This document shows, piece by piece, positions 12,789-54,473 of a stretch of DNA of 64,000 nt. Each line of letters begins with the position of its first letter. Within the stretch, counting starts at the first letter, position 1. The notes beneath the pieces are model-generated. The model searched no databases, was not told the origin of the DNA, and worked only from the letters and a program-made list of their open reading frames with translations. The DNA comes from a virus (Duplodnaviria > Heunggongvirae > Uroviricota > Caudoviricetes), in IMG/VR virus record IMGVR_UViG_3300031647_000750, positions 64,025-128,024 of that record. The stretch is one strand, 5' to 3'. Both the position numbers and the translations under genes were made by a program.

Positions 12789-12817
12789 ATTATACCGTAA
12801 GGATCCTTACTTGTCAA
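12789..12817 (-). promoter_or_regulatory. early promoter with dyad spacer
   Basis: TTGACA-AGTAAGGATCCTTACGG-TATAAT (17-nt spacer). Confidence 0.85.
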
Positions 12818-12820
12818 GTA

Positions 12821-13663
12821 TTAAGTGGGAGGTCTACCTACACTTCTTTTATTTTTCATATCATCTGTTATACTATGCCACGTGTCGTATATACTCTTGT
12901 CCATTACTAGTTGTCTATCTGAATTTCTAAATGCCTGTATTATTCTTAGAATCTCTGTAGGCAGAAACTCATAATTAAAGAACCCAATGCTTAGGTCATT
13001 GCTAGGCGTATTGCAAAAACTTGTTTCTATATTATTCGATATTATTTGTTCAGTTGGTGTGGTGTATATATAGTCTTGCAATTTGCGATTAACTGCAAAT
13101 ATATAATCGCTCCACTTGAAGTCTCCTAACGGAAACTGTGACGAGTAGTGAATTTCTGGATTACATGTTGCTAGTGTAGGCATCTCATTATCACAATTGC
13201 TTAACGAATATATACTACTAATCATCTCCAGTCTGGGAGCCATGTCCCACCTAAACTTAATAATCCAATCGTACTCTCCTAACGATTTTGCTAATTTTAT
13301 TCCTTCAAACCACATGTACGCTTGGGCATAGTAATTATACATCACTACATCATCTGTGCTCATGGTGTCAATGATCAGTCGTTGTCTATTTTTATTTAGT
13401 ACACCTGTCATTGTTTCATTTTTATAATCTGTTTCGAAATTAAGTTTCTTGACTGACTTAAACATATCTAATTTTTTTGAGAGTTTACAGTGATCCCATG
13501 TAATACCATAGTAATCAATATCCATTGCTCGACTACATTCATCATTAAATTTAGTATATTCGTCTGGAATGCACATGGGCGGAGTTGCAGTACTAGCATC
13601 ATTCTCCCAAGATCTTGTTTCTCCTGTGAGTACTATTGCAACTCTTAATGGTGTATCAAGCAT
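12821..13663 (-). CDS. putative glycosyltransferase-like protein (same family as 22595-26210)
   Basis: VAIVLTGETRSW, YGITW, KFRWD, SDYIFA. Confidence 0.55.
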   Translation of the reverse strand: MLDTPLRVAIVLTGETRSWENDASTATPPMCIPDEYTKFNDECSRAMDIDYYGITWDHCKLSKKLDMFKSVKKLNFETDYKNETMTGVLNKNRQRLIIDTMSTDDVVMYNYYAQAYMWFEGIKLAKSLGEYDWIIKFRWDMAPRLEMISSIYSLSNCDNEMPTLATCNPEIHYSSQFPLGDFKWSDYIFAVNRKLQDYIYTTPTEQIISNNIETSFCNTPSNDLSIGFFNYEFLPTEILRIIQAFRNSDRQLVMDKSIYDTWHSITDDMKNKRSVGRPPT

Positions 13664-13871
13664 TGTTAATCATTCTCCCAAGATAGATCACTTCATTGGC
13701 TATCTTCGCGTCTAGTCCATAATACTCTGCAAATCTATCAACTGTAAGGAAATTATTAAAGTAATCTAAGAACAGATCTTCTAGGAATACACCAGACTTA
13801 TTGTCTCCAGATACTGTTGTGTTGTAGTTGTCGATGGTAGTCTCAATGAGATCAGAAATTAATTCAGACAT
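13656..13871 (-). CDS. hypothetical protein
   Basis: 71 aa; LFLDYFNNFLTVDRFAEYYG; ATGCTTGA overlap with the next gene. Confidence 0.65.
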   Translation of the reverse strand: MSELISDLIETTIDNYNTTVSGDNKSGVFLEDLFLDYFNNFLTVDRFAEYYGLDAKIANEVIYLGRMINNA

Positions 13872-13894
13872 AATATACTCCGTAGTGTTAAGGT

Positions 13895-14278
13895 TTATCC
13901 AGTGAATGAGTAAGGCTTGTTGAATGAACCAATGTTCATACTAACGTAGTGTGAACGGTGGAAATAGTCAGTCATTGCATCAGACTCGTCGAAGAAGTCT
14001 GGGCCTTTCATAGCAGCATGTAGTTCGTTTAGAAAGTCTTTAATGGTAACGTTATCAGCATAATGGTTGTCTATGTGATACTCGTTCACTTCAAGATACT
14101 CACGTGCCCATTGTGCATTCTCTAAGTACTGACTGAAGTCTAATGCACCACCTGATACTTTAACGACTAAGGTAGAATAGTTCTGAACAGAGATAGAACC
14201 TTTCATCTTGTACTTCTTCAACACTGCTTTGATCGCTGGTGCCAAACTCGCTTTGTCTTCTTTAGATACATACGCCAT
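13895..14278 (-). CDS. conserved phage hypothetical protein
   Basis: MAYVSKEDKASLAPAIKAVLKKY start behind promoter module and AGGA RBS. Confidence 0.75.
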   Translation of the reverse strand: MAYVSKEDKASLAPAIKAVLKKYKMKGSISVQNYSTLVVKVSGGALDFSQYLENAQWAREYLEVNEYHIDNHYADNVTIKDFLNELHAAMKGPDFFDESDAMTDYFHRSHYVSMNIGSFNKPYSFTG

Positions 14279-14318
14279 GATATAATTCCTTGCTTTGATT
14301 AACTTAACTTCTATAACT

Positions 14319-14347
14319 ATTATAACGTAAGGAGCCTCACTTGTCAA
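14319..14347 (-). promoter_or_regulatory. early promoter with dyad spacer
   Basis: TTGACA-AGTGAGGCTCCTTACGT-TATAAT. Confidence 0.85.
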
Positions 14348-14371
14348 CCCCTTATAGTGAATTAATTGTAA

Positions 14372-14470
14372 TTAACTCTTGATAGCACGTACGATACGCA
14401 ATGGTACTATCCACAATGAGTATGTAAGGAGTACTGATACTAAAACATAAACTAACAAGTCACTAGACAT
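14372..14470 (-). CDS. 32-aa single-TM peptide
   Basis: MSSDLLVYVLVSVLLTYSLWIVPLRIVRAIKS; has its own promoter and AGGA RBS. Confidence 0.55.
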   Translation of the reverse strand: MSSDLLVYVLVSVLLTYSLWIVPLRIVRAIKS

Positions 14471-14507
14471 AATGCGTTCCTTTTGGTTAACTCTTTATCT
14501 TGTAACC

Positions 14508-14536
14508 ATTATATAACAAGGAGCCTCACTTGTCAA
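14508..14536 (-). promoter_or_regulatory. early promoter with dyad spacer
   Basis: TTGACA-AGTGAGGCTCCTTGTTA-TATAAT. Confidence 0.8.
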
Positions 14537-14570
14537 CTATTTAAGTGCATTTAATCCCATTAATTTACTA

Positions 14571-14599
14571 TTGACACTACATCATTATACATATATAGT
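14571..14599 (+). promoter_or_regulatory. sigma70-type promoter
   Basis: TTGACA-17 nt-TATAGT with no ORF before the next promoter. Confidence 0.5.
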
Positions 14600-14684
14600 A
14601 TATACACACCGCAGACAGCCGTACAGTAAGACTCAACAGTAACTGTACGTATGACTATCATAGTAACTAATTGTATCAAATCAC

Positions 14685-14713
14685 TTGACAGGTAATGATC
14701 CTTAGTATATAAT
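14685..14713 (+). promoter_or_regulatory. early promoter of the REase-MTase operon
   Basis: TTGACA-GGTAATGATCCTTAGTA-TATAAT then AGTTACATAAGTTAAT. Confidence 0.85.
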
Positions 14714-14744
14714 AGTTACATAAGTTAATTTTAAAGGAAGTACC

Positions 14745-15314
14745 ATGAACACATCAACGTATGCAGACGACCTGCGTAATGCGATCAATCTAGTTGACTA
14801 CACCAACCTAGTAGCCGCGTTAGGTACACAGTTGAACTCACCCAAAGATCGCTTCGATAAGAGCGACATCATTGAACAATGTATTGACGTATACTCTAAT
14901 GGTAGACTATCATGGGTAGACGAAGTAGGACGTGATCATCGTGATAACAAACTCAACGTTGATCTAGAGTTCAAGTATGTAACCAATGGTATGTTCACCC
15001 CATTGAAACGCGAGAAGAAGATGGTCAAAGTTAAACTAAAGAATAGTCTAGGCTCATCTAAAGGTACTAACATAGATCATCCCGCTGACTTCTATATGAT
15101 TGGTCAACAAGACGCTATCGCTATCATCAGTTGGGATGATGTCAAACCATTCCTAGTCGCTGTACCAGACGGCATAGAAAGTCACATACCGTTTGAGGCA
15201 CTAACGTTCTTAATGAAGCCTACCAATGTGGTTAACAACAATACAATGAACCTAGACTATAAAGCAGTCAAAGCCCAAGCACAACGAAAGATCATAGAGG
15301 ATGCTCGTGTATAA
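14745..15314 (+). CDS. putative PD-(D/E)xK restriction endonuclease
   Basis: E..I...GRDH.D....DLEFK (D...ExK) pattern; 14-nt overlap with the DNA MTase. Confidence 0.5.
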   Translation: MNTSTYADDLRNAINLVDYTNLVAALGTQLNSPKDRFDKSDIIEQCIDVYSNGRLSWVDEVGRDHRDNKLNVDLEFKYVTNGMFTPLKREKKMVKVKLKNSLGSSKGTNIDHPADFYMIGQQDAIAIISWDDVKPFLVAVPDGIESHIPFEALTFLMKPTNVVNNNTMNLDYKAVKAQAQRKIIEDARV

Positions 15315-16173
15315 CGTATATAACCAAAACTGTATAGAAGGTATGAGAGACAACGTTGACTCTAACTCAGTCGATCTTATCTTCACAGATCCACCATACG
15401 GCATAGAGGGCGACAAACTAGATGCTCACTATAACCGTGACGAATCCAATGTAGTTCCTGGCTATGTGGAAGTACCACTAGAGACATACGGACAGTTCTC
15501 ATTAGATTGGATTACTCAGTGCGCTAGAGTATTACGTCCTGGTGGTTCAATGTATATCGTTAGCGGTTACACTAACCTACACCATATACTCAACGCATTA
15601 CATTCTACTGATCTTACCGAAGTGAACCATATCATAGCGGAATACTCTTTCGGTGTGAGTACTACGAAGAAGTATGTCAGTAGTCATTACCATGTATTGT
15701 TCTGGACTAAACCACCAGCAAAGAAACAACAACGTACATTCAATACAAACGCATACTATGCTGATAGTAAAGATAGTTACCATGATAGACTAACTGTGCA
15801 GAAGATGCCTCGTAGTCATAAGCCGGGACAAATAAAGAATAAGAATCAGTTGAGTGAAGACTTCATTGAAAAGTTCATCATGTATAGTTCCAATAGAGGC
15901 GACATAGTGATGGACCCGTTCTGTGGTGGTTTCACTACCGCTAGGACAGCATTGCGTTACGGTAGAGAGTTCGTAGGCTTTGAACAGAACACCAACGCAT
16001 ACGATACCTTCCTACCAACGTTGGCTAATGTAGAGAGTAAAGATGATCCCACTGTGGTGTCACCTGATCCTGTAGAGTTAGCGAAGCGTGTTAAGATGCG
16101 TGAGGGTTGGAAGCGTGATAGAGCGAAGAAGAAGGCTGAACTACCCAGTGATCTGTTCAGTGAAGATAATTAA
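15301..16173 (+). CDS. beta-class N6A/N4C DNA methyltransferase
   Basis: N-terminal LIFTDPPY (motif IV), RVLRPGGS, C-terminal VMDPFCGGFTT (motif I), FVGFE. Confidence 0.9.
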   Translation: MLVYNVYNQNCIEGMRDNVDSNSVDLIFTDPPYGIEGDKLDAHYNRDESNVVPGYVEVPLETYGQFSLDWITQCARVLRPGGSMYIVSGYTNLHHILNALHSTDLTEVNHIIAEYSFGVSTTKKYVSSHYHVLFWTKPPAKKQQRTFNTNAYYADSKDSYHDRLTVQKMPRSHKPGQIKNKNQLSEDFIEKFIMYSSNRGDIVMDPFCGGFTTARTALRYGREFVGFEQNTNAYDTFLPTLANVESKDDPTVVSPDPVELAKRVKMREGWKRDRAKKKAELPSDLFSEDN

Positions 16174-16187
16174 TTTACAATAAACAC

Positions 16188-16216
16188 TTGACAAGCAATG
16201 TGCCTTACGTTATAAT
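16188..16216 (+). promoter_or_regulatory. early promoter module
   Basis: TTGACA-AGCAATGTGCCTTACGT-TATAAT. Confidence 0.85.
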
Positions 16217-16250
16217 AGTTAAGTAAGTTAATCAACGCAAGGAACAACAG

Positions 16251-16601
16251 ATGAAATACGCAATCTACCAAATCCAACTGTCAAACGCTCAATACGATCT
16301 TATCAATGCAGAAGGACACGATTCTGTTCACAAGCAATCAATGAAACTAGACATGGGTCTTAGAAAAAATGACACTGGCGCTGTTGCTAAGGAAGCATTT
16401 GATTTAGGTTACTACACACATGTTTCAAACATCGATGCGTATACATTAGAAGGTGTATTCCACGTAGGCAATATGGGACCAGAGACAGATATTGAAAGAC
16501 TTTCTAGAATGAGTTCTATAAGTGTTGGAGATATTATTGAAGATGAAAATGGAAAGCAATCAGTTGTTGCTAACTACGGATTCCAAGAAGTTTCAAAATA
16601 A
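16251..16601 (+). CDS. hypothetical early protein (possibly YodL-like)
   Basis: YAIYQI...SISVGDII pattern reminiscent of YodL-like domains. Confidence 0.6.
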   Translation: MKYAIYQIQLSNAQYDLINAEGHDSVHKQSMKLDMGLRKNDTGAVAKEAFDLGYYTHVSNIDAYTLEGVFHVGNMGPETDIERLSRMSSISVGDIIEDENGKQSVVANYGFQEVSK

Positions 16602-16604
16602 AGG

Positions 16605-16633
16605 TTGACAAGTAAGACGTCTTACCTTATAAT
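16605..16633 (+). promoter_or_regulatory. early promoter with perfect 14-bp dyad
   Basis: TTGACA-A-GTAAGACGTCTTAC-CT-TATAAT. Confidence 0.9.
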
Positions 16634-16664
16634 AGTTATATAAGTTAATTAAAGAGAGAACGAT

Positions 16665-17192
16665 ATGACTACTAGAAACCAACAAGTTAAGATGATTGCT
16701 GAAGAGATCAAAGAATCTGTTCGCCCGTTAATGGCTAAATGGGTAGATGATCGTGTCAAGTATCTTCTTAACACTAGAACATGGATGCAGTCAGATGAGA
16801 CTCAATCTGCTATCGATGAAAAATATAATAAGATGAAGCCAATTGCAGGCAGGTATTTTATGCGTTCCGATGCACGTAATAGTGTATATGAAAATGCTGG
16901 TATTAGTAAAGGTGACAAACAACTAATCGCTTACTACGGTCAAGATGATTGGTTACTTAAAGCCCAGAAGGATGCTGAGGCAAAACTATTAAAGATCGAA
17001 GTTGCTGTCTTTAAGAAAGTTACATTCGATGTTGATACAGTTGAAAAGATACGTATCATTGAAGGGCGTGACGGTTACATGGAAGGTTCATGGAAATTGA
17101 ATAACGATAAGGTGTTCTCATTTGAAACATTTTACGCTGGTGGTTATAACATACAATGTCTTCACGTTCGCACCAAATATAAATTAAAATAA
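16665..17192 (+). CDS. hypothetical early protein
   Basis: Behind promoter module; C-terminal AGGYNIQCLH.R motif. Confidence 0.75.
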   Translation: MTTRNQQVKMIAEEIKESVRPLMAKWVDDRVKYLLNTRTWMQSDETQSAIDEKYNKMKPIAGRYFMRSDARNSVYENAGISKGDKQLIAYYGQDDWLLKAQKDAEAKLLKIEVAVFKKVTFDVDTVEKIRIIEGRDGYMEGSWKLNNDKVFSFETFYAGGYNIQCLHVRTKYKLK

Positions 17193-17213
17193 ATTAATTA
17201 AAGAGAGACCGAT

Positions 17214-17414
17214 ATGATTACCGAACTTAAAGCACAGTTGGTACATGCACAAGATACATGGGCAGCGTCCGAAGAAGATTGGATGAATACGATCAATCGT
17301 GGTAGGTATTCAGCACAGTATAACGCTTACATGAAGGCTGCTGCCGATTGGAAAATAGTTGTCGAGATACAGGCAGAAATAAAAGAATTAGAGAAAACTA
17401 TGCATTGCGCGTAG
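17214..17414 (+). CDS. hypothetical coiled-coil protein
   Basis: Preceded by the downstream half of the promoter module (AATTAATTAAAGAGAG). Confidence 0.65.
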   Translation: MITELKAQLVHAQDTWAASEEDWMNTINRGRYSAQYNAYMKAAADWKIVVEIQAEIKELEKTMHCA

Positions 17415-17490
17415 ACTAACACAACTATGCATACGGATCTTTACTGTAGTATTTCATAATAGCGAGTCTCATAATCTCGCATTCTCTTAG

Positions 17491-17524
17491 TGAACATTAT
17501 TTAACTGTGATGTTCATTTTTTTT
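17491..17524 (+). terminator. rho-independent terminator
   Basis: TGAACAT...ATGTTCA stem followed by a T run. Confidence 0.55.
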
Positions 17525-17654
17525 GTCTAAAATATATCCGTGACTATACACACCTCGATAGTCACACACGTGAAATCCATTTTTATATATGTTATAATAG
17601 ACTGACGGACTACGTTCCCTGACCACGCATTAAATAATTTAATTACAATAACAC

Positions 17655-17683
17655 TTGACAACCAAGGCTCCTTACGTTATAAT
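17655..17683 (+). promoter_or_regulatory. early promoter module
   Basis: TTGACA-ACCAAGGCTCCTTACGT-TATAAT. Confidence 0.85.
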
Positions 17684-17717
17684 AGTTATATAAGTTAATC
17701 AAGAGAAGGAAGTAATT

Positions 17718-18053
17718 ATGTCTTATTCAGCAATGGCAGTAACTGATTCACTAGGAAGGGGTTTGAAGATGGGGATGGACTTCTCTACTCTTTCCGTTGC
17801 AGAGGTAGGCGAACGCATTGACCCTTGGGTTAGAGAAGTATCATACAAAGGTAAGACTACTTTGTCTCAACTGTTCACTTCCGATAAATTCATTAAGTTC
17901 GACCTTCTTGCTCGTATCGTTCAACGTACTGATAAAGTAGATATGAACGACGAAATCTCTCTATACGCATCTGGTTACATCAAAGAACTTAGAATCGGCA
18001 ACAAAAAGTATAGGACTGTTAACTCTTCATACTTAGGTTCTCGTTCACTTTAA
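17718..18053 (+). CDS. hypothetical early protein
   Basis: Behind promoter module with AAGGA RBS. Confidence 0.7.
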   Translation: MSYSAMAVTDSLGRGLKMGMDFSTLSVAEVGERIDPWVREVSYKGKTTLSQLFTSDKFIKFDLLARIVQRTDKVDMNDEISLYASGYIKELRIGNKKYRTVNSSYLGSRSL

Positions 18054-18067
18054 ATTAATATAAAGCC

Positions 18068-18096
18068 TTGACAAGTAAGGCGCCTTATAGTATAAT
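18068..18096 (+). promoter_or_regulatory. early promoter with dyad spacer
   Basis: TTGACA-AG-TAAGGCGCCTTA-TAG-TATAAT. Confidence 0.9.
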
Positions 18097-18131
18097 AGTT
18101 ATATAAGTTAATTAAGAGAAGGGAAGTTATT

Positions 18132-18596
18132 ATGTCAAATGTATCTGATGCACATATCCTAAACGATCTAGAGTATCGTGGTATTGATGATTTCCTTTCT
18201 GAGATGGAAGTAGGACTAGTTGTCCCAACTTGTTTCGTTGAGCGTATCAAGGCTATCATTAAAGAAAACTATGACATTGATCTAGTTGCTAAACCTGGCA
18301 TGTTGGATAACCTACATGAAGGTGTGTTCTGTTCAATGCCTTACAATGATACTAGTGTAACACTAGTGTCTTCATACTGTCAAAGAGAAAATATTATGTC
18401 ACGAATGGCTCCAATTACAAATGAATTAACCATGCTGTACTCTATCGTAGATGATCTAACTAATCTACAAGGGTCTGCACTTCCTCTACAATACCAACGC
18501 ATTGACGCGCTTATTGAGAAGTATGAATTAAAGGTTAAAGACGCACAGCAAACTTCATGGGAAGATGCTCGTAACGCATTCCATACACTAGACTAA
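18132..18596 (+). CDS. hypothetical early protein
   Basis: Behind promoter module. Confidence 0.7.
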   Translation: MSNVSDAHILNDLEYRGIDDFLSEMEVGLVVPTCFVERIKAIIKENYDIDLVAKPGMLDNLHEGVFCSMPYNDTSVTLVSSYCQRENIMSRMAPITNELTMLYSIVDDLTNLQGSALPLQYQRIDALIEKYELKVKDAQQTSWEDARNAFHTLD

Positions 18597-18614
18597 ATTA
18601 ATTCCCGAAAAGAG

Positions 18615-18643
18615 TTGACAAGTAAGGCTCTTTACGTTATAAT
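18615..18643 (+). promoter_or_regulatory. early promoter module
   Basis: TTGACA-AGTAAGGCTCTTTACGT-TATAAT. Confidence 0.85.
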
Positions 18644-18670
18644 AGTTAATTAAATCAAAGAGAGAATATC

Positions 18671-18943
18671 ATGGCTATGCTAAACACTGTTCAAGATCAA
18701 ATAGGTCGTATGTCTTCAGACGAACTAAACAAAGTAGTAGAATCAGTTAAACTACGTAGGACTTACTTAGCCCGTCAAACAACTAACAGCATTGTCATCG
18801 GTGACAAAGTTCAATTCAATGGTGGACCAAAGCATGGGACTATCACTGGTAAAGTGGTTAAAGTCAACATCAAAACCATCGTAGTAGACTCTGGTCCTAA
18901 TAACTGGAAAGTATCTGCCAACCTTATCTCTAAGGTATCATAA
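18671..18943 (+). CDS. small KOW/SH3-like protein
   Basis: GDKVQF.G...ITGKVVKVNIKTIVV...WKVS beta-barrel pattern. Confidence 0.6.
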   Translation: MAMLNTVQDQIGRMSSDELNKVVESVKLRRTYLARQTTNSIVIGDKVQFNGGPKHGTITGKVVKVNIKTIVVDSGPNNWKVSANLISKVS

Positions 18944-18961
18944 CCATTACAATAACACAAT

Positions 18962-18989
18962 AAAGGTATGCTAATCACATACCTTTTTT
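18962..18989 (+). terminator. rho-independent terminator
   Basis: AAAGGTATG-loop-CATACCTTTTTT. Confidence 0.7.
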
Positions 18990-19027
18990 ATATATAACAA
19001 TAATATATAACAAGGCATCATACCTTA

Positions 19028-19445
19028 ATAAGTCATATCTCCCCTAGTAGAACTCCAATCATATACCAAGTAACGATACACATAACAATAAGTCAATCAT
19101 CCCCTAGTACAACTCCAACAATAACTACATTCTCCCCTACCATAACCCCACAACAATAGACGGACATAGTAATACATACTATAAGTCATATCTCCCCTAG
19201 TAGAACTCCAATCATATACACTATAACTACATTCTCCCCTAGTAGAACTCCACAATATATACAATAGTATATCATAACCCCAGCAATATATACAATAGTA
19301 TATCACACCTTAATAAGTCATATCTCCCCTAGTAGAACTCCAATATAATACACAATATACACAGTAAGGCACTATACATGGGACACCAACTGTAGGAGTA
19401 GTGTAACATACTATACAAGTCATATCTCCCCTAGTGTAACTCCAA
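19028..19445. repeat. iteron-like direct-repeat array (7 CCCCTA cores)
   Basis: ATAAGTCATATCTCCCCTAGTAGAACTCCAAT and variants at about 19028, 19088, 19181, 19313, 19417; ATAACTACATTCTCCCCTA at 19121, 19223. Confidence 0.9.
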
Positions 19446-19514
19446 TGTCTACGCCTCACTGTAGGATTATAGTAGGATACCATAATGGGCTGTATAGTAG
19501 GGTTTTACCATAGC

Positions 19515-19675
19515 CTTTATATTTTTAGTCACACAGGGCGAGAGGGTGTTTAGATAATTATCAACGTTTAAGCATCATTCAGCCAGTATAGACTCATAAT
19601 AGGGCTACAATAGGGCTATAAATCGGTAGTCTTTATATTTTAGTCCGGGTAAGGCGAGAGGGTGTTTAGATAATT
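19515..19675. repeat. pair of ~45-bp direct repeats
   Basis: CTTTATATTTT(T)AGTC-n6/7-GGCGAGAGGGTGTTTAGATAATT at about 19515 and 19631. Confidence 0.85.
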
Positions 19676-20021
19676 TTGAGCCTTATTTTGTATATACAAT
19701 TAATTAATAATTAAGCCGCAACAGTCTCCCAACGATGGTAGAATGATAGTGATACACTGCCTAACGCTGTGTGGTATGATATGAGAGCGTGTATGGGTGT
19801 GTGTTACGAGAGTAGAGTCTAGTGTAGTATAGAGTGTTCCTAGTGTGTATAGGTTATAGTTTCTGTAGGGGAGAGTATAGTTATAGTTTAGTGTGAGTAT
19901 GTTATAGAGAGAGTAGTTGTTTATGTAGTTGTTATGGTTATGCGTGTTAAGAAATATGATAAAAGAGGGTAAAAATTTTGGTGATGTATTTGTATTATAT
20001 TTAATTAATTTAATTAAGTTA

Positions 20022-20050
20022 TTGACAAGTGAGAGTCCTTACTGTATACT
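20022..20050 (+). promoter_or_regulatory. early promoter module
   Basis: TTGACA-AGTGAGAGTCCTTACTG-TATACT. Confidence 0.75.
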
Positions 20051-20064
20051 AGTTATATGAGTTA

Positions 20065-20250
20065 ATGAAATGGGAAGAGATTATGAAGGTATTATTGATT
20101 GGTATGTTGTTCAGTTTTATAGGTGTGTTACTATATGTATTTTCGGTAGGATTTGGTCCTGAGGTATTTGGAGTAGTTTATATTCTAGTGATTCTATTGT
20201 TTGGATTGTATTTGTTAAGGTTGAAGAGGTTGGAAAATTCTGATGAATAA
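20065..20250 (+). CDS. small two-TM membrane protein
   Basis: Two hydrophobic helices flanking GFGP. Confidence 0.65.
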   Translation: MKWEEIMKVLLIGMLFSFIGVLLYVFSVGFGPEVFGVVYILVILLFGLYLLRLKRLENSDE

Positions 20251-20326
20251 GGTATTATTGAGTAAGATGTCTTATTGTGTTAAATGTTAAAAAAAATTCG
20301 TTGGTTTGTGTTATGGGAGATTGGTG

Positions 20327-22095: not shown

Positions 22096-22174
22096 ATTAA
22101 TTGGAGTAAAAGAGTATGCTTAGTACATTTGCATATGTAAGTCGTGAAGCATTAAAACATGCGCAGGGGTATGA

Positions 22175-26867: not shown

Positions 26868-26896
26868 TTGACATGTAATGTGTATTGCTGTATAAT
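26868..26896 (+). promoter_or_regulatory. early promoter
   Basis: TTGACA-TGTAATGTGTATTGCTG-TATAAT. Confidence 0.75.
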
Positions 26897-26927
26897 TAAT
26901 ATATAAATTAATGACAGGAAGCATGTG

Positions 26928-27098
26928 ATGAAATATACAGTAATTTACAGTGATGGTACTGAGCAAATGTTTTATATACGTGGAATGGCAGAGATGAATG
27001 CTCGCTTATATGACGGTCGTGTAGTAGGCAAGCCTAAGTTAACATTAGTAACGGATGAACCATCGCAACCAATGCTTCCAGCATGGGTAGCAGCATAA
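26928..27098 (+). CDS. 56-aa hypothetical protein
   Basis: Hand translation MKYTVIYSDGTEQMFYIRG...PAWVAA; AGGA RBS behind a promoter. Confidence 0.6.
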   Translation: MKYTVIYSDGTEQMFYIRGMAEMNARLYDGRVVGKPKLTLVTDEPSQPMLPAWVAA

Positions 27099-28749: not shown

Positions 28750-28779
28750 TTGACAAGTAAGGTATATTGGTGGTATAAT
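28750..28779 (+). promoter_or_regulatory. early promoter module (18-nt spacer)
   Basis: TTGACAAGTAAGG...TATAATAGTT. Confidence 0.7.
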
Positions 28780-28802
28780 AGTTTTATAAATTAATTATTG
28801 GA

Positions 28803-29219
28803 ATGATAATGACGCGTATTAATCTTGTACCACCTAGTGAGTTAGCCGATCAGCATTTAGTTGCAGAGTATAGAGAAATCTTTATGGTCGGTTCATCGTT
28901 ACAGCGTTCAATCGTTAGTAAGAATTGGACAACAACTAAAGTAACACTGCCTAAGATATTCACTTTGAATACAGGTCATGTCAAGTTCTTTTATGATAAG
29001 GGTAAGTATCTATCAGATAGGTACGATGATATTCGTGTAGAAATGATTTTGCGTGGAATGAATCCTGATCCTGCTAGAGTATTTAAATCATGGCAGTTCC
29101 CAACCGAACTATACAAGTCTTACACACCTACACCAGATGCGCTAGACATTATACGTGAGCGCATTGCATATCGTATTAGCGAGAAGCCAACTTGGTATCG
29201 TTGGAGTCCTCATATTTAA
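28803..29219 (+). CDS. denV: pyrimidine-dimer DNA glycosylase / endonuclease V
   Basis: MTRINLVPPSELADQHLVAEYREI, LNTGHVKFFYDKG.YL..RY, KP.WYR. Confidence 0.95.
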   Translation: MIMTRINLVPPSELADQHLVAEYREIFMVGSSLQRSIVSKNWTTTKVTLPKIFTLNTGHVKFFYDKGKYLSDRYDDIRVEMILRGMNPDPARVFKSWQFPTELYKSYTPTPDALDIIRERIAYRISEKPTWYRWSPHI

Positions 29220-37184: not shown

Positions 37185-37213
37185 TTGACATCTGTTGTCA
37201 TGCAGTGTATAAT
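37185..37213 (+). promoter_or_regulatory. sigma70-type promoter of tctA-tctC
   Basis: TTGACA-17 nt-TATAAT. Confidence 0.75.
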
Positions 37214-45291: not shown

Positions 45292-45313
45292 AGAAACTAG
45301 GAAATAGATAACA

Positions 45314-46402: not shown

Positions 46403-46412
46403 CAGGAGAATT

Positions 46413-47369: not shown

Positions 47370-47492
47370 TGTACGTGATGTATCTGATATCATGGAACAT
47401 GATTTTTTCACTAACCATATATCACAAGAAAATTGGAATAGTGACACACCACCAAATATGTGCGTGGCTTGTTGTCACCATGAGGAATAAAA

Positions 47493-47600
47493 ATGAAGAT
47501 CAAACTAGAGATAGAAATCGATACAGATAACGAGCAAGATCGAAATACTATTGAAGAAATTATTCAAAAGTTAGTAGAACTACAAGAAATGATGGAATAA
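47493..47600 (+). CDS. 35-aa acidic peptide
   Basis: Hand translation MKIKLEIEIDTDNEQDRNTIEEIIQKLVELQEMME; GAGG RBS. Confidence 0.55.
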   Translation: MKIKLEIEIDTDNEQDRNTIEEIIQKLVELQEMME

Positions 47601-47702
47601 AAAATGAAGATAGAAAATAACAATAGTATGATATTTGATGCAGAGGGATATCGTGCATACCACCCCGTGGGATGAAATAAGTGAAATAATTTATAATAAG
47701 GG

Positions 47703-47731
47703 TTGACAAGTAAGAACTATTGTTATACAAT
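47703..47731 (+). promoter_or_regulatory. early promoter module
   Basis: TTGACAAGTAAG...TACAAT-AGTTAAGTAAGTTAATCAA. Confidence 0.75.
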
Positions 47732-47768
47732 AGTTAAGTAAGTTAATCAATCAAGAAAGGAAGTACAC

Positions 47769-49919
47769 ATGGGTTCATTACAGTTGGCAAAAGTAATTAA
47801 GGCAGCAGTCAGAGTAACCAATACAAAATCAACATTCAAATATAGCAAAGCGAGATACACGCATTATAGTGTAGCCGAATATTTAAAAATGTTGGGTGGT
47901 CATGATGGTCAGCAACTTGCAATCGCACATGGACAGCGTTCTCCTGTATATGGCCCATTGAAAATGATGCATTTGGTGTCTAGCATATTTAATGGAATGT
48001 CAATTCCAGAATTAACATGTGCACGTCACTCTATTCAACATTATGAGGATACCATTAAAACGTCTTTAGAGATTCCACCGCACATCATTACTAAAGGCGA
48101 GAATGCAACACTGTTAAATCGTAAAAATATGACGTATATTAAGAAGAATATTGATTTCATCCTTGATCTTATTGATGGACAACAGCGTACTATTTCACTA
48201 TCAGTTGCCTTCAATGGATCATATAATGGTGATATTATGTACCTAAAATTAGATGATGTAAATGTAGATGAAGATGGTGCAATTGAGTTCAATAAAAGTG
48301 ATTTTGCATTTTATTCGTCTGCTGCTGATGCACCTGTTAACTCTATATGTATTTCACGTATGCGTGAATTTGAGAATTTCACCAGCGAAGATATTTACAA
48401 TGAATTGGAATTGCAATCAAACACTGACGATGAACGAGAGAAACTTCTAACTATCATTGATCAGATGCATGATGCAATCTTTGATAGAGAATTATTGACG
48501 CTTAAATATTACTCAAACCCTAGTGCAGCCGAAAGAACAGAACTATTTGTAACGCCAAATTCGACAAGCACGGATGTAACTGATATTGATTTGTGTTACA
48601 ATGCGTTATCAGAAAAATATTATGATGAAATGAATCAATTGTCTGAGCGATTGGGCAAATTCTTTATGTCTTATGGCGTGTCAGATGCTAAAGTTTCAAG
48701 AGATTTCGCATTGCGGTTAATGATTGTAACATGTAGCCCAAAGCACTCAAAAATGAATGATCACGTGACTCGGTTAGGAGAGGGTAAAGACCCATTTGGA
48801 AAGTATGAGCATTGTTATCTTGATTTTATTGGTCGTCTAGATGATATGTTATCACGTATAGACAATGAATTAAAATCAAATGGTGTATTACGTTCATCTA
48901 TTGCAGATCAATTTGCGTATGTAAATAATGATGAAGCAATTGTTGCAACACTAACATTATTTATTGTAATGGCATATGAAGCGTCAAAAAATAATGCAAA
49001 CATGTTAAGTAGTAAAATGTCTGGACCTAAATTAGATCAAATGCTATATATGTTTTCACGACACAGGTCGCTGAATGTACTAGCACAAAATGTGAATAAG
49101 CAAGAGAAAGCCAATCGGTTCCGTATGATTTCGGATGCAGCAAGGGCAATGGTTTATGGTGTTAAGCGTGATGATGAAGTTGAAATTGGTAAGGTATTTA
49201 AGCCGTTAACATGGACAGGTTCAGAAATTGGTTACAATGCTATTGATCAGACGTTGTTCGTAGAGGTAGGTGCAGTACCAAACTTTATGCAAAGTATCAA
49301 ACATGACGCTGCATATGTTGCACTATCTGTATTTACAGATGGTAATCAAAGAAAGCCTGATACACAACTTGAACACATTGTATCCCAACAGGTTGTTGCG
49401 AAGAATGCCTTTGACGTGTTGATTAATCAGCGATCAACAGGTTATGTCGATCATAGAGGATTGTCTGCCTTCGTTAAAGATACCAATAATACACTTGCAA
49501 ACATGTGTATTCTGCCTCAAACGGTAAACGCATCTTTGAGCGCGTGTCCAACAGTGGTTAGCAAAATAAGTAAGTTATCAGATGCTACTGAGTTCTCTTC
49601 GGGCATACTAAGTATGGTACTACGTGAATATGGAATTGGCAATTATGTAGAGGCGGCAGAAGGGGCATTGTTCATAGAGAATGCACCATTCCAAGCCTTC
49701 GCTATTTACTGTAAGAATGTTAGGATGCAGCAATTTACTAATAATCTTATGTTAAGTAATATGAATAAGCCGACACAAGTTGCTATGACGATAGATGAAA
49801 TGCTAGAACGATTCTTCAAAACGTACTTAGTAACTGAGTTAGGTACGAGTAAGTATGGTACTGAACTAGATGATAAGTTAAAGGCAGCAGTTAAGGATTA
49901 TGGGTATATCATTGGATAA
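47769..49919 (+). CDS. DUF262 + DUF1524(HNH) GmrSD/SspE-like nuclease
   Basis: QR..V...L..SIFNGMSIP and LIDGQQRT (DUF262); C-terminal EHIVSQ...LANMCIL...N (HNH-like). Confidence 0.75.
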   Translation: MGSLQLAKVIKAAVRVTNTKSTFKYSKARYTHYSVAEYLKMLGGHDGQQLAIAHGQRSPVYGPLKMMHLVSSIFNGMSIPELTCARHSIQHYEDTIKTSLEIPPHIITKGENATLLNRKNMTYIKKNIDFILDLIDGQQRTISLSVAFNGSYNGDIMYLKLDDVNVDEDGAIEFNKSDFAFYSSAADAPVNSICISRMREFENFTSEDIYNELELQSNTDDEREKLLTIIDQMHDAIFDRELLTLKYYSNPSAAERTELFVTPNSTSTDVTDIDLCYNALSEKYYDEMNQLSERLGKFFMSYGVSDAKVSRDFALRLMIVTCSPKHSKMNDHVTRLGEGKDPFGKYEHCYLDFIGRLDDMLSRIDNELKSNGVLRSSIADQFAYVNNDEAIVATLTLFIVMAYEASKNNANMLSSKMSGPKLDQMLYMFSRHRSLNVLAQNVNKQEKANRFRMISDAARAMVYGVKRDDEVEIGKVFKPLTWTGSEIGYNAIDQTLFVEVGAVPNFMQSIKHDAAYVALSVFTDGNQRKPDTQLEHIVSQQVVAKNAFDVLINQRSTGYVDHRGLSAFVKDTNNTLANMCILPQTVNASLSACPTVVSKISKLSDATEFSSGILSMVLREYGIGNYVEAAEGALFIENAPFQAFAIYCKNVRMQQFTNNLMLSNMNKPTQVAMTIDEMLERFFKTYLVTELGTSKYGTELDDKLKAAVKDYGYIIG

Positions 49920-49926
49920 TATAAAA

Positions 49927-49978
49927 GTCAGGGTAAATGTAAAGTTTACCTTGACAAATATAATTTATGATGTATAAT
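49927..49978 (+). promoter_or_regulatory. hairpin overlapping the -35 of the gp45 operon promoter
   Basis: GTCAGGGTAAA-7 nt-TTTACCTTGAC stem; TTGACA-16 nt-TATAAT. Confidence 0.6.
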
Positions 49979-50023
49979 AATAACACTAATTGATAATAAT
50001 ATTAATTAAAATTGGAGAAGTAA

Positions 50024-50779
50024 ATGAATACACGTGACGTAATACAAGATATTGTAAAACACACAGCAGGTCCCGCTGGATTTACAGCAGTTAAATTAAC
50101 AAGTTCTGATACAGAAACAACACTTGACGCGATGAACGCAGATCGTACAGTTATCTTGAAGGGTAAACTTCATAACGCTGCACCTGAGTTTCAAGGTGAA
50201 ATCGGTATGGGTAATCTAGGCTTCTTAGCAGGAGTTTCTGGTCTTGGTGCATATTCAACTCAATCAGAGAATGCTACTGTCACAGTAGTAACACGAGATC
50301 GCAATGGTGTTGATACGCCTGATCATTTGTTATTCAAAGATGGTGATGGTAATAAAGATCAGTATCGCTTTATGAGTAAAGAGATTATAGATCAAACATT
50401 AAAAACTGTTACATTCAAAGGTGTTGAATGGGATATCGCATTTGAACCTACCAAAGCGAAAGTAACAGAATTGCAACAAGTCGCAGCAATCTATGGTGAC
50501 ATTGAACCTAACTTTACTGTTAAGACAGAAGATGGTAACTTGGTTGTTACTGTTGGTGCAGCAGATGGTTCTTATACAGGTAAGCGTATCTTTGCAACCA
50601 ATGTAAATGGTACATTATCACAAGGCTATGCATGGCCTCTATCGCAAGTATTGGCTATCCTAAAATTGGGTATGTCTAGTTCATGTGTAATGCAAATTTC
50701 AGCACGCGGCGCTCTACAGATTTCAGTAGATTCTGGCATTGCTAAGTATGACTATATCCTTCCTGCTCTAACGGTGTAA
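50024..50779 (+). CDS. gp45: T4-like DNA polymerase sliding clamp
   Basis: 251 aa, two-domain clamp-like pattern, C-terminal SVDSG.A.YDYILPA. Confidence 0.75.
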   Translation: MNTRDVIQDIVKHTAGPAGFTAVKLTSSDTETTLDAMNADRTVILKGKLHNAAPEFQGEIGMGNLGFLAGVSGLGAYSTQSENATVTVVTRDRNGVDTPDHLLFKDGDGNKDQYRFMSKEIIDQTLKTVTFKGVEWDIAFEPTKAKVTELQQVAAIYGDIEPNFTVKTEDGNLVVTVGAADGSYTGKRIFATNVNGTLSQGYAWPLSQVLAILKLGMSSSCVMQISARGALQISVDSGIAKYDYILPALTV

Positions 50780-50782
50780 TGT

Positions 50783-52276
50783 ATGGCGAATTTGACTGAT
50801 ACTAATGAAGATTACGCTGTATGGCTACCTAGCATCAGCAATTTCTATAATAATATCATTACACGGTATCACCATCAGGGGGATGGTTATTTTCCTCCTG
50901 AGCGTATACCCGTGGGACTTGAACATGGTTTAGCAGGTTGTAATTTCTTAAAAGAAGATGATTCATATTTTCAATATAAATGGGGATTATATTCGGTTGG
51001 ACATGCTCAGCGAGATATCACTAAGACTGATAAGCGTGACATGATCATTCAAACACGTGATAGAAGTAAGACTTTTATCATGGGTGATTCTGGTGGTTAT
51101 CAAATCGTAACTGGTGTTATCAAGTGTGATTGGAAGAATTTCAAGACAGATGATAGTTTACGTCATCAAGTGTTGAATTGGCTTGAACACACCGCAGATT
51201 ATAGTATGATTCTTGATGTTCCCACGCTTGCCACATTGCCGCAGTATTCAGCGACTAGTGGTATCAAAGATTTCCAACAGTGTCTTGATTATACTAAGTT
51301 TAATGCTGACTTCTTTGTAAAGAACAGAAAGTTTGAAACTAAATACTTAAATGTTATGCAAGGTATGAATGAGCAAGAATCTCGTGTATGGTATGATGCA
51401 GTTAAGCATTATCCATTTGAGGGTTGGGCATTTTCTGGTGCTTGTAAGTCAAACAAAATTGATATCTTATTACGCAGACTAATTCAGATGCGTGATGACA
51501 AATTACTTGAGCGAGGCGAACGAGATTTAGTTCATGTGCTAGGTGTAGGCAAACTCGAACTTGCTGTAGTTTATACTGCAATAAAACGAGCGTTGCGCGA
51601 GCATGTAAATTCTGATATGGAATTTACATTTGACGCAGCATCGCCATTCATTGGTGCATCGAAGGGTGAAATCTACGCTGAATCAATATATAAGAGTGAA
51701 TCATTTAGGTTACAGACTGATCGATTCATTAATGATAAATCATTAAAGGGTAGTACAGTACGGTTGCCTTATCGTTCACCTATTGCAGATCGTTTAACGA
51801 TGGGCGATATGTGTTATCAAGGAGTAGGTGCGCTTGATAAGAACGGAGATGTATCAAAGACAAGTTGGGATTCATTGACTTATATGTTGATGCAAGGTCA
51901 CAACACGTATTCTCATATTGAATCTATTCAACGAGCAAATCGCTTTGCAGATGCTACCATGCCATTAATTAATACAGATCATAACTTATGGTCACAAGTA
52001 AGTGGTAAGGGCAAAGCCCGACAGATTGATGATCATATTCCAGTAGAAGTGGTTTATATGATCAATTTCATTGAGAAATTGTTTAAGAGTGAAACTCCTA
52101 TGACAATGATTAATGAGGCTGAAAGTTTGTTTGCTAAGTTCAGTAGACAGAAATCAGTAAAGAACAGTGACGTATTATTTTCTAATCTATTTCAGATGGG
52201 TGATGATGCAACTGTAGACTCTGATGAGGAAATCGAACAAGATATCTCAGAAGAATTTTTAGAAACATTAACTTAA
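50783..52276 (+). CDS. TGT-superfamily base-exchange enzyme, DpdA-like 7-deazaguanine DNA transglycosylase
   Basis: MGDSGGYQI, ILDVP, GWAFSG, HVLGVG, TFDAASP, HN; lacks the CxCxxC Zn site; folE and queE nearby. Confidence 0.75.
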   Translation: MANLTDTNEDYAVWLPSISNFYNNIITRYHHQGDGYFPPERIPVGLEHGLAGCNFLKEDDSYFQYKWGLYSVGHAQRDITKTDKRDMIIQTRDRSKTFIMGDSGGYQIVTGVIKCDWKNFKTDDSLRHQVLNWLEHTADYSMILDVPTLATLPQYSATSGIKDFQQCLDYTKFNADFFVKNRKFETKYLNVMQGMNEQESRVWYDAVKHYPFEGWAFSGACKSNKIDILLRRLIQMRDDKLLERGERDLVHVLGVGKLELAVVYTAIKRALREHVNSDMEFTFDAASPFIGASKGEIYAESIYKSESFRLQTDRFINDKSLKGSTVRLPYRSPIADRLTMGDMCYQGVGALDKNGDVSKTSWDSLTYMLMQGHNTYSHIESIQRANRFADATMPLINTDHNLWSQVSGKGKARQIDDHIPVEVVYMINFIEKLFKSETPMTMINEAESLFAKFSRQKSVKNSDVLFSNLFQMGDDATVDSDEEIEQDISEEFLETLT

Positions 52277-52300
52277 CTTAAACTAAACGGAGAAATCAAC

Positions 52301-52507
52301 ATGGCTAAGAAAATTAGACTTATTGACGATGTAGAAAATAATGATTCATTATCATTGACAGAAGCACCGAAGGGTGATATGATTGATACAGCATTTACAA
52401 AAGAAGACGCTGCAACACTTATGAAACTTGCAGAAGCGATTGATTGGAAATTATGGGAGTTGTTAAAATTCACTCGTAAATTCGAAGCAACCGAAGATGA
52501 AACATAA
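52301..52507 (+). CDS. hypothetical protein
   Basis: AIDWKLWELLK; GGAG RBS. Confidence 0.7.
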   Translation: MAKKIRLIDDVENNDSLSLTEAPKGDMIDTAFTKEDAATLMKLAEAIDWKLWELLKFTRKFEATEDET

Positions 52508-52537
52508 CTTTAACTATTAACTAATTGGTATATTATT

Positions 52538-52900
52538 ATGACCACAGATACAGCAGCACCAGCATCCCAGTATAAGCCCTCGGCGCCTCGTCTACCATCA
52601 CTATACATTAGTGGGTATTACACCTTACACGATATTAAGTTTGATTTGTTGAAGATCATTGAGCCATACGATGGTTATATGTTTAATCGCAAAGATACCG
52701 AACATGTTCGTGGATTGTTTAATAACTTTTTGAGTGATCTTCGTCGTGCATACAAGTTGCGTGAATACAATATCTATACTACCGTGAAGGATAATGCTAT
52801 TACATTTGATGTAACAGTAAAGATTCACAAAGATCGTGCAGTAAAGAAATTGAAAATCCACGTAGGTCGTTTGAACTACGTATCTCCAACTCACTCTTAG
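52538..52900 (+). CDS. hypothetical protein
   Basis: 120 aa; operon position. Confidence 0.65.
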   Translation: MTTDTAAPASQYKPSAPRLPSLYISGYYTLHDIKFDLLKIIEPYDGYMFNRKDTEHVRGLFNNFLSDLRRAYKLREYNIYTTVKDNAITFDVTVKIHKDRAVKKLKIHVGRLNYVSPTHS

Positions 52901-52909
52901 GAGTATAAG

Positions 52910-53596
52910 ATGTCAGTATCAAGTAAAATTAAACAGCGCCTCACTGATGCCGATCATCGACATTGGGCAGGGGATAATATTTCAGAATATATCATGGATG
53001 GTGAACACGATGAACTTATTGTAGAACTTACTGAAAAGTTCGAAGGTGTTCTTAATAGTTTAATAATTGATACAGTCAATGATCCCAATTCGCAAGATAC
53101 TGGACGACGACTTGCTAAAATGTATGTGACAGAATTAATGAGTGGGCGTTATTATCCTGCTCCTTCTGCTACTGCATTTCCAAACAATAGCAGTGATCCG
53201 TTTAAAGGTATGTTGGTAGTTAGATCTGAAATCAAATCAATGTGTTCACATCATCATCAACCTGTAACTGGTGTTGTTTATATTGGCATCTTACCGGAAG
53301 ATAAAGTAATTGGATTAAGTAAGTACACGCGTATTGCACAATGGTGTGCAAGGCGTGGAACGCTTCAAGAAGAACTTGCAAATGATATTGCTCGTGAAAT
53401 TGAGAAGGCTACCGATAGTAAGCATCTTGCAGTGTATATTCAAGCCGAGCATGGCTGTTGCACTAATCGAGGCATTATGGCACATAGTTCGTTAACACAA
53501 ACTACTGTACTTAGAGGTAATTTCTTCGTTAAGGCTTCTGTTAAAGAAGAGTTCTTTGATAATATTAAAATGCAACAATCATTTGCACCGAGGTAA
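52910..53596 (+). CDS. folE: GTP cyclohydrolase I
   Basis: DT..RLAKMY, SMCSHHHQP, GLSKYTRI, LQEEL, AEHGCC..RG, T..LRG.F. Confidence 0.95.
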   Translation: MSVSSKIKQRLTDADHRHWAGDNISEYIMDGEHDELIVELTEKFEGVLNSLIIDTVNDPNSQDTGRRLAKMYVTELMSGRYYPAPSATAFPNNSSDPFKGMLVVRSEIKSMCSHHHQPVTGVVYIGILPEDKVIGLSKYTRIAQWCARRGTLQEELANDIAREIEKATDSKHLAVYIQAEHGCCTNRGIMAHSSLTQTTVLRGNFFVKASVKEEFFDNIKMQQSFAPR

Positions 53597-53598
53597 TT

Positions 53599-54144
53599 AT
53601 GAATAAAAGAGTATATTACAGTTGGGAAGACGTTGAGCATATGCTTGCGACAATCAATAATGAAATGGCAGCCGATGGTTGGCGCCCAGACTACATTGTA
53701 GGTATGACACGTGGCGGTCTGGTACCAGCAGTTATGTTGAGCAACTTGACTGGCATTAAAATGCATGCACTAGGTAAAGATGACACCAATGCGTGGATGT
53801 CAGAAGATGCAGTGGGATGGGAAGACACTACTAATGACGGTGATGCTATCGTTCCAGATGTAAACCATCCTAATAATAGATCTAACATTCTTGTTATCGA
53901 TGATATCAATCATTCTGGTAAATCTTTTAATTGGCTAAAGTCTGATTGGAAAAGTACATCGGCTCAACCTGACTTTGCATGGGATGATATCTGGCATGGA
54001 AATGTTAGATTTGCATCATTGGTAGACAATGAAGCAAGTTTATTCACAGATGTTGATTATGCAGCAATCGAGATGAATAAGATCGACAAGCCTGTATGGT
54101 GTGTATTCCCTTGGGAAGCAGAACGCGATTATGGCAACTTATAA
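53599..54144 (+). CDS. type I phosphoribosyltransferase (xanthine-guanine PRTase-like)
   Basis: YSWEDV, VGMTRGGLVPA, LVIDDINHSGKS PRPP loop, WCVFPWE. Confidence 0.85.
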   Translation: MNKRVYYSWEDVEHMLATINNEMAADGWRPDYIVGMTRGGLVPAVMLSNLTGIKMHALGKDDTNAWMSEDAVGWEDTTNDGDAIVPDVNHPNNRSNILVIDDINHSGKSFNWLKSDWKSTSAQPDFAWDDIWHGNVRFASLVDNEASLFTDVDYAAIEMNKIDKPVWCVFPWEAERDYGNL

Positions 54145-54442
54145 TAACCAATCAGATGTATGTGTAGACACAATAGATGGTTCATCTATAACAACTGACT
54201 TCATACATCCGAGTTATGCTGTTGGCAGACTAACGTCAGATATGCGTAATAGTGTTATCATAAATACACCAGATGGTAATACTATTGATCTAGTAGAATC
54301 ATTAAATGAATCCAATATGTTACTAGGTGTTATGACTACCTTATTGAATAATCTCATCAAAGAGAATCCTAGCATCACTAGTGCACAATCTATTGAGGAA
54401 TTATTAGATCAGCAAAAAATGATGAATAAGTTAGCCAAATAA
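54131..54442 (+). CDS. hypothetical protein
   Basis: 103 aa; 14-nt overlap with the PRTase. Confidence 0.6.
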   Translation: MATYNNQSDVCVDTIDGSSITTDFIHPSYAVGRLTSDMRNSVIINTPDGNTIDLVESLNESNMLLGVMTTLLNNLIKENPSITSAQSIEELLDQQKMMNKLAK

Positions 54443-54444
54443 GG

Positions 54445-54473
54445 TTGACAAGTAATGATTCTTGCTGTATACT
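54445..54473 (+). promoter_or_regulatory. early promoter module
   Basis: TTGACA-AGTAATGATTCTTGCTG-TATACT then ATAAGTTAATTAA. Confidence 0.75.

Follow-up and report, generated by a model that had tools for sequence, protein, structure and literature searches.

Some T4-like phages carry repeated intergenic cassettes called PeSLs, in which an AT-rich region with a stop codon is followed by a strong sigma-70 promoter, a stem-loop, a Shine-Dalgarno sequence and an ATG (PMC2839356, Arbiol et al. 2010). [quoted passage not shown] In the PST/T4 and nt-1/KVP40 systems, stem-loop sequence and position were found to vary among T4-like lineages, down to AGNA-loop-TCNT; PST-type stems are very short, half-degraded cassettes ("1/2 PeSLs") occur, and the -35 of PST/T4 is given as TTTACW (PMC4122927, Comeau et al. 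2014). We analysed a 64,000-nt stretch of DNA, hereafter the window, that corresponds to bases 64025-128024 of the 192-kb IMG/VR virus record IMGVR_UViG_3300031647_000750, and that contains 14 copies of a promoter whose -35/-10 spacer holds an inverted repeat, or dyad. These 14 sites probably (we would put it at roughly 75%) belong to the PeSL type, as portable cassettes for early genes in a giant phage that is uncultured and related to T4.

The pattern TTGACA, 15-19 nt, TAYAMT occurred 21 times in the window, where chance predicts 0.81 and 100 shuffles gave 4 at most. Over the whole record, 53 promoters had a perfect -35, and about 19 of them carried the family spacer, some far outside the window. 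The 14 copies listed in a first-pass annotation, made from the letters of the window, all matched the pattern where they had been placed. Both hexamers were perfect (12 of 12 positions) in 11 of these 14, and the spacer, close to A-GTAAGG-nn-CCTTAC-GT, measured 17 bp in 13 cassettes and 18 bp in one. An AT-rich (AATTAA-type) tract lies upstream of the promoters in all 14 copies, and stop codons of the preceding genes fall within it. Downstream, the leader AGTTAnnTAAGTTAAT was exact in seven cassettes and had at most three mismatches in 12, with a 9-nt core, TAAGTTAAT, conserved in the family; a purine-rich ribosome-binding site (RBS) and an ATG followed 24-41 nt past the -10 in all 14, so that a leader and RBS after most copies, as annotated, were indeed there. 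The information profile showed conservation from about -20 to +25, and the whole unit is roughly 60-70 bp long (about 65). Ten cassettes are clustered within 12.7-20.1 kb of the window. A late-promoter motif, TATAAATA, was not enriched in the window (10 sites versus 12.5 expected). These data support the view that the 14 copies form one co-regulated promoter family, very probably read by a host RNA polymerase of the sigma-70 type. The cassettes and their remnants are as follows, with cassette coordinates running from the -35 to the base before the ATG.

12757..12817 (-), cassette 1: perfect dyad GTAAGG-AT-CCTTAC; drives a 74-aa open reading frame (ORF), 12532-12756, conserved in relative L011
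14279..14347 (-), cassette 2: dyad with one G.T pair; drives a 127-aa ORF, 13898-14278 (phrog_10415)
14471..14536 (-), cassette 3: right arm degenerate, leader divergent (8 mismatches); drives a 32-aa ORF, 14372-14470
14685..14744 (+), cassette 4: drives a 189-aa ORFan, 14745-15314, and the overlapping N6_N4 DNA methylase, 15301-16173
16188..16250 (+), cassette 5: drives a 116-aa ORFan, 16251-16601; the methylase stop codon is inside its AT-rich upstream tract
16605..16664 (+), cassette 6: perfect dyad GTAAGA-CG-TCTTAC (the "compensated" A:T case); drives a 175-aa ORFan, 16665-17192
17190..17213 (+), half cassette: 3' part of the leader and RBS, without promoter; precedes a 66-aa ORF, 17214-17414
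17655..17717 (+), cassette 7: drives a 111-aa ORFan, 17718-18053
18068..18131 (+), cassette 8: drives a 154-aa ORFan, 18132-18596
18615..18670 (+), cassette 9: leader shortened; drives a 90-aa ORF, 18671-18943, conserved in L011
20022..20082 (+), cassette 10: -10 TATACT; drives a small ORF that ends at 20250 (ATG at 20065 or 20083)
20252..20290 (+), degenerate cassette: spacer unit GTAAGA-TG-TCTTAT kept, both hexamers decayed; precedes a paralogous small-gene array
26868..26927 (+), cassette 11: dispersed copy with a TATTGC-type right arm (the "compensated" T:A case); drives a 56-aa ORF, 26928-27098
28750..28802 (+), cassette 12: 18-bp spacer, dyad with 2/6 Watson-Crick pairs; drives a denV-like pyrimidine-dimer glycosylase, 28803-29219
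47703..47768 (+), cassette 13: -10 TACAAT, dyad 3/6; drives a GmrSD_N-domain protein, 47769-49919
54445..54506 (+), cassette 14: -10 TATACT, dyad 3/6; drives a subtilase, 54507-57266

The regulon that had been proposed for these promoters, a restriction-modification pair, a GmrSD-like nuclease, denV and a subtilase, was recovered in its larger part, together with a row of small ORFans: Pfam searches of the downstream genes matched an N6_N4 methylase, Pyr_excise (denV-like), GmrSD_N and a subtilase (S8). The 189-aa putative restriction partner of the methylase had no match in Pfam or PHROGs, nor had almost all of the small cassette genes, so that this member of the proposed pair is left without a family.

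If the sites are PeSL-type cassettes, each unit of about 60-70 bp would bring an AT-rich tract holding the stop codon of the previous gene, a perfect sigma-70-type -35/-10 pair at 17 bp and a conserved 5' leader, and would end at the ATG with a strong RBS. Host RNA polymerase would fire the cassette promoters right after infection, and any gene standing behind a cassette would therefore be expressed early. The early set would then consist of ORFans, the DNA methylase, the denV-like glycosylase, the GmrSD-like protein and the subtilase. Since copies of a 65-bp unit stand at many places in the genome, they are presumably kept alike by homologous recombination or gene conversion, and recombination between cassettes would let genes swap, invert, be lost or be gained. 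The spacer dyad, GTAAGG-nn-CCTTAC, would be an inherited part of the cassette, positioned like the commonest RB49-type PeSL stem-loops; short, AT-rich and decayed in most copies, it might form at most a feeble hairpin in read-through RNA.

The likeness to the PeSLs of RB49 and phi1 extends to the near-perfect TTGACA-N17-TATAAT and to the inverted repeat between -35 and -10. As with PeSLs in general, whose conserved part spans about 60-100 bp, the cassette is repeated and intergenic, the upstream stop lies in an AT-rich tract, and a Shine-Dalgarno sequence and ATG stand at the 3' end; ORFans in variable regions are preferred, identity is bounded by the cassette, half cassettes occur, breakpoints between relatives cluster near promoters, and the carrier phage is T4-related, as judged from its Gp23. 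Unlike in RB49 and phi1, the inverted repeat is AT-rich, only 5-6 bp long, mostly imperfect and weak, and there is no G-run/C-run terminator; PeSLs also differ in lacking the additional leader core TAAGTTAAT and in not belonging to an uncultured jumbo lineage. The design is the known one of PeSLs, and what differs here is the feeble inverted repeat, the extra leader core and the phage lineage. The present family carries that design into an uncultured jumbo branch of the T4-related phages, with cassette boundaries that are unusually sharp (-35 to ATG). In such a design, a ready-made early promoter, leader and RBS would double as a recombination handle; among PeSLs, recombination of cassettes gives indels, replacements or mini-circles. 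The family marks the accessory genes that are probably expressed first (the methylase, the denV-like repair enzyme, the GmrSD-like nuclease, the subtilase and many ORFans), and its cassettes make a ready list of strong portable promoters.

A second comparison is with the early promoters of T4 itself, which have an extended consensus beyond the hexamers and an UP-like A/T tract. Both sets consist of many strong host-polymerase promoters with conserved non-hexamer positions. They differ in the -35, TTGACA here and of the GTTTAC type in T4, and in the spacer motif, which is specific to the present clade.

The phage is a giant, uncultured relative of T4. CheckV gave the record a completeness of 52%, at 192 kb, and a full genome of roughly 370 kb for the lineage, so that this is probably a jumbo phage. 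A T4-type Gp23 capsid gene (Pfam PF07068, E 5e-84) is present in the same record, which makes the carrier of the cassettes a T4-type phage, and its RNase H was closest to that of PA5oct-type jumbo phages of Gram-negative hosts, at 51% identity. An initial guess of a Gram-positive, SPO1-like host was dropped on these two results. Relatives were collected by a scan of IMG/VR in which the spacer was left free in the pattern, so that their spacers were not selected for a dyad. The scan gave 41 loci, among which 26 related contigs were searched whole; most related contigs were fetched in full (1.1 Mb) and yielded 153 distinct promoter modules. The cassette family was found in about 26 related IMG/VR contigs, and no cultured relative with the cassette was found among 50,697 phage records.

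Comparison of cassettes within and between these genomes pointed to mobility of the unit. Cassette 7 (G000:81679) matched another cassette, 97 kb away (G000:179106), at 61 of 62 bases from the -35 to just before the ATG, and a second, identical pair was found within L014. In both pairs the identity begins a few bases upstream of the -35 and ends at the ATG; the flanks and the driven genes are unrelated. Among the related contigs that were searched, which make up part of the 1.1 Mb fetched, no homologue was found for the first genes of nine of the 14 cassettes; core genes had orthologues at 70-99% identity in related contigs. L011 (10.5 kb) carries six cassettes, has only three cassette genes in common with the window, one of them inverted, and has other ORFans in between. 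G011 and G010 differ by a replacement of 8 kb versus 5 kb, the start of which lies 18 bp upstream of a cassette.

L011 also differs in what surrounds its cassettes. On one side (L011:91-733), relatives of the paralogous small-gene array of the window (20.3-22.1 kb) adjoin the cassette region; on the other side stand core genes which in the present genome lie 35 kb from the array. The region around the cassettes has therefore undergone large-scale rearrangement.

The dyad had suggested a different view of the family in the first-pass annotation, according to which a base change in either arm is accompanied by a matching change in the opposite arm, suggesting selection for symmetry. Covariation was tested in three ways, by column shuffles on the 14 window copies and on 55 unique 14-mers that included relatives, and by pair-counting on 46 aligned promoters. 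As a consensus, the spacer is more palindromic than chance would make it: a 6-bp inverted repeat occurs in a random 17-mer of the same composition with a probability of 0.0034, and in-register pairing in the 46 rows was 85.5%, versus 44-63% in slid controls. This palindrome does not reflect covariation of the arms. The 14 window copies formed 58 of 84 possible Watson-Crick pairs, against 58.06±2.58 when right-arm letters were shuffled among copies (p=0.60). For the 55 14-mers, 205 of 330 pairs were Watson-Crick, against 203.1±5.5 (p=0.41), and with G.T pairs counted too the total was 280, against 278.3 expected. The independent pair count on 46 rows gave 85.5% paired versus 84.6±1.3, a level reached in 156 of 500 shuffles; its covariation score was 0.317, versus 0.307 in shuffles.

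Only two of the 14 dyads were perfect (6/6), and five had 5/6 pairs. At pair 5/10, for instance, the counts were 22 G:C, 6 T:A, 13 G:A and 6 T:C. The two compensated copies, at 16605 (A:T) and 26868 (T:A), are matched by an equal number of half-changed copies, and are what independent variation of two columns yields. Matching between the arms thus equalled the shuffle expectation in every set, and selection for symmetry is not supported; the absence of covariation is therefore the outcome that the annotation had itself named as contrary to its proposal. Of the sequence analyses proposed with it, the promoter scan, run here as a pattern search, confirmed the family, and the covariation statistics gave no signal in the window copies or in the 46- and 55-sequence sets. 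A palindromic consensus with a few seemingly compensated copies is no evidence of selected symmetry, and adding relatives made it visible that the arms vary independently. The dyad does not show the signature of a selected structure or of a symmetric operator.

The same measurements bear on the proposal that the dyad extrudes as a DNA hairpin, or cruciform, recognised by a polymerase or a switch protein. The early promoters of N4 are hairpins that lack sigma-70 hexamers, and a single-subunit virion RNA polymerase reads them; the present sites share with them a short inverted repeat inside a phage early promoter. Non-Watson-Crick pairs were mostly G.T on the sense strand (75, versus 14 A.C), as would be expected of a single folding strand. 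However, shuffled columns gave the same paired total, so that the G.T excess is fully accounted for by column composition; for this reason tolerance of sense-strand G.U was also given up as a sign of an RNA or single-stranded DNA hairpin. The arms are 5-6 bp long around a loop of 2-4 nt, RNA folding of the family gave -3.8 kcal/mol at best, with a mean of -1.1 versus -0.55 for shuffles, and several copies remained unfolded. Unlike in N4, these are consensus sigma-70 promoters with a weak dyad, whose perfect hexamers at 17 bp point to ordinary duplex recognition. A cruciform from AT-rich arms of 5-6 bp is not credible, and we hold the N4-like mechanism, one of the two suggested at first, to be extremely improbable.

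The other suggestion was a MerR-type operator geometry. In MerR-type promoters, a dyad operator occupies an overlong spacer of 19-20 bp, which needs distortion induced by an activator. Here, in contrast, the spacer is 17 bp (18 bp in one cassette), the dyad is imperfect in 12 of the 14 copies, and the hexamers are perfect, so that no DNA-twisting activator is needed. The MerR family (PF13411) had no match in five records of the clade, which total 526 kb but are incomplete, so that its absence is unproven; the controls matched in 12 of 14 genomes. The geometry that had been claimed is not supported for the present promoters.

A further question was which positions of the spacer are conserved, and why. 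The AGTAAGG just after the -35 and the TT at -18/-17 are nearly invariant, and the loop and the remaining right arm are variable. Lineage-specific variants of the right end recur among paralogous copies, accompanied by leader variants that match them and by an unaltered left arm; just before the -10, one lineage has GTGT and another GGTA. In several cassettes of L050 and L052 (contig G008), TTGTGT, which makes a perfect TRTG extended -10, closes the spacer just before the -10, and the leader begins with TATTGT in place of AGTTAT, these co-changes being lineage-wide across paralogous cassettes. In the window, the dyads that had been quoted are present and the dyad begins at the same spacer position in all 14 copies, as first described. 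In relatives, the 14-nt unit is also found 1 or 2 bp farther from the -35; it is therefore not locked in position, and this part of the description does not hold beyond the present genome.

Conservation of this kind could arise if the spacer bases were contacts for RNA polymerase, -35-proximal on the left and of the extended -10, TRTG-like type on the right, with the palindrome as a by-product. Such contacts would agree with the invariant TT at -18/-17 and the R that comes after it at -16, often with a G at -14, with the perfect TRTG of the TTGTGT lineage, and with the right arm of the shifted subfamily, which gives TGn directly before the -10; optimal hexamers and spacing in all copies are also what selection for maximum strength would produce. 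The left arm, however, is displaced by 2 bp from the -35 in the shifted subfamily and is kept nevertheless, a shift that a polymerase contact should not tolerate. Moreover, in the non-family promoters of this phage perfect hexamers go together with spacers under no constraint, and the spacer motif is therefore unneeded for a consensus promoter. We regard this explanation as improbable.

The non-family promoters with perfect hexamers, at 37185, 42782, 49951 and 61415 (+), served as an internal neutral control. For 42782, 49951 and 61415, comparison with relatives showed hexamers kept and two spacers drifted (4 and 7 of 17 positions), with that of 49951 unchanged; overall, spacers of non-family promoters had drifted at 4-11 of 17 positions in five of six orthologous pairs, again with hexamers kept, the sixth pair (49951) being unchanged. 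In the family, the spacer and leader of cassette 14 are identical in relative G004, although the subtilase is only 74% identical. The orthologue of cassette 13 in G004 differs at 8 of 17 spacer positions, and its spacer is still of the family type. Retention of the spacer therefore goes beyond drift, and pure neutrality is insufficient; either conversion from paralogues or a function is needed.

Several of these and other observations weigh against the PeSL-type reading or limit its support. Of the internal homology breakpoints in contig pairs at least 93% identical, 21 of 118 lay within 60 bp of a consensus promoter, versus 4.7±2.1 expected, an excess that favours the reading, but the counts contain the same events seen in several contigs, and the enrichment is therefore indicative, not exact. 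The signal of concerted evolution is modest: the nearest neighbour was in the same lineage at 0.318 versus 0.211 (p=0.048). No copy folded below -3.8 kcal/mol or had a U-tract after the stem, unlike the stable terminator/attenuator of RB49 and phi1 PeSLs, and a terminator scan found none at the cassettes (5 in the region versus 7.3 expected). Orthologous family promoters differ at 0, 2 and 8 of 17 spacer positions and are all still of the family type. All lineages have one and the same left arm, and the internal spacing of the 14-nt unit is constant in two registers, so that it may be recognised as a unit. Finally, we infer, rather than observe, the early timing and the use of host polymerase.

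The last observations on the spacer are those expected if the 14-nt dyad were a site for a dimeric phage or host regulator that binds between -35 and -10 and either switches the early regulon off or sets its timing. The perfect 6+6 palindrome of the consensus, improbable by chance, would fit such a site, as would the 19 matches to a degenerate dyad pattern where 3.6 were expected, with only five stand-alone dyads, such as might mark the gene of a regulator, outside promoters, a number close to that given by chance. The motif is kept in orthologous promoters while other spacers drift, and the absence of covariation is by itself no argument against a protein site. Yet only two of the 14 copies are symmetric, and a degenerate right half-site (YHTTRY) beside a conserved left one is a misfit with a symmetric dimer; the outer bases of the right arm are altered in whole lineages that leave the left arm as it was, and the half-site centres are merely 8 bp apart. 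The lineage-conserved genes driven by cassettes show no DNA-binding family, as the search for a MerR-family gene had also found none. To our knowledge, T4-type phages turn off early promoters through the polymerase, not through operators. A search for AsiA (PF09010), the T4-style early shut-off factor, gave no match, but its control was silent too, and it is uninformative. A regulator of this kind therefore seems unlikely. The same holds for the broader possibility that the spacer unit is a clade-specific recognition site, either for an early-promoter regulator or for an RNA-level factor acting on read-through transcripts, which we consider doubtful; if true, it would be an operator-based switch of the early regulon in a giant T4-related phage, replacing or adding to polymerase modification. 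Of the phage-specific global switch first envisaged, the co-regulated promoter family stands; nothing positive was found for a dimeric regulator, and the PeSL model accounts for the anatomy.

Some features of the arms and of the region were recorded in addition. The right arm with the loop, for instance at 14319-14347 and 17655-17683, reads CTCCTTA, the letters of the 16S rRNA 3' end, and the left arm reads TAAGG, which is Shine-Dalgarno-like. Pairing of the right arm with the cassette's own RBS in read-through RNA was considered and rejected, the duplex energy being -4.64, versus -4.41±0.20 with the RBS of other modules (p=0.13). A terminator function of the cassettes found no support either, as no terminator-like site coincides with any cassette.

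Of all cassette-driven genes, the ORF behind cassette 2 (13898-14278, -) shows the best conservation across lineages; its identity to an L011 gene of opposite relative orientation is 68.5%. It belongs to phrog_10415, of unknown function, and the clusters nearest to it in the ESM Atlas consist of viral hypothetical proteins, one cluster having LPD29 in 19% of its members. Its product was considered as a regulator and dropped, since it is simply a viral protein of wide occurrence and unknown function.

An extra near-consensus promoter, TTGACA-17-TATAGT (14571-14599, +), lies between cassettes 3 (14536, -) and 4 (14685, +), which diverge from each other. It has neither the family spacer nor the leader, and no obvious ORF stands between it and the next cassette; a short transcript might arise from it. 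Outside the window, at about 179040-179075 (G000:C1), an intrinsic terminator with a GC stem and then a T-run stands directly upstream of the cassette at 179106, so that core regions have a separate terminator ahead of the cassette, unlike the array. The array itself is closed by a hairpin of 9-10 bp at 18962-18986, which has T-runs on both strands, resembles a bidirectional terminator, and directly precedes a non-coding repeat region of roughly 1 kb.

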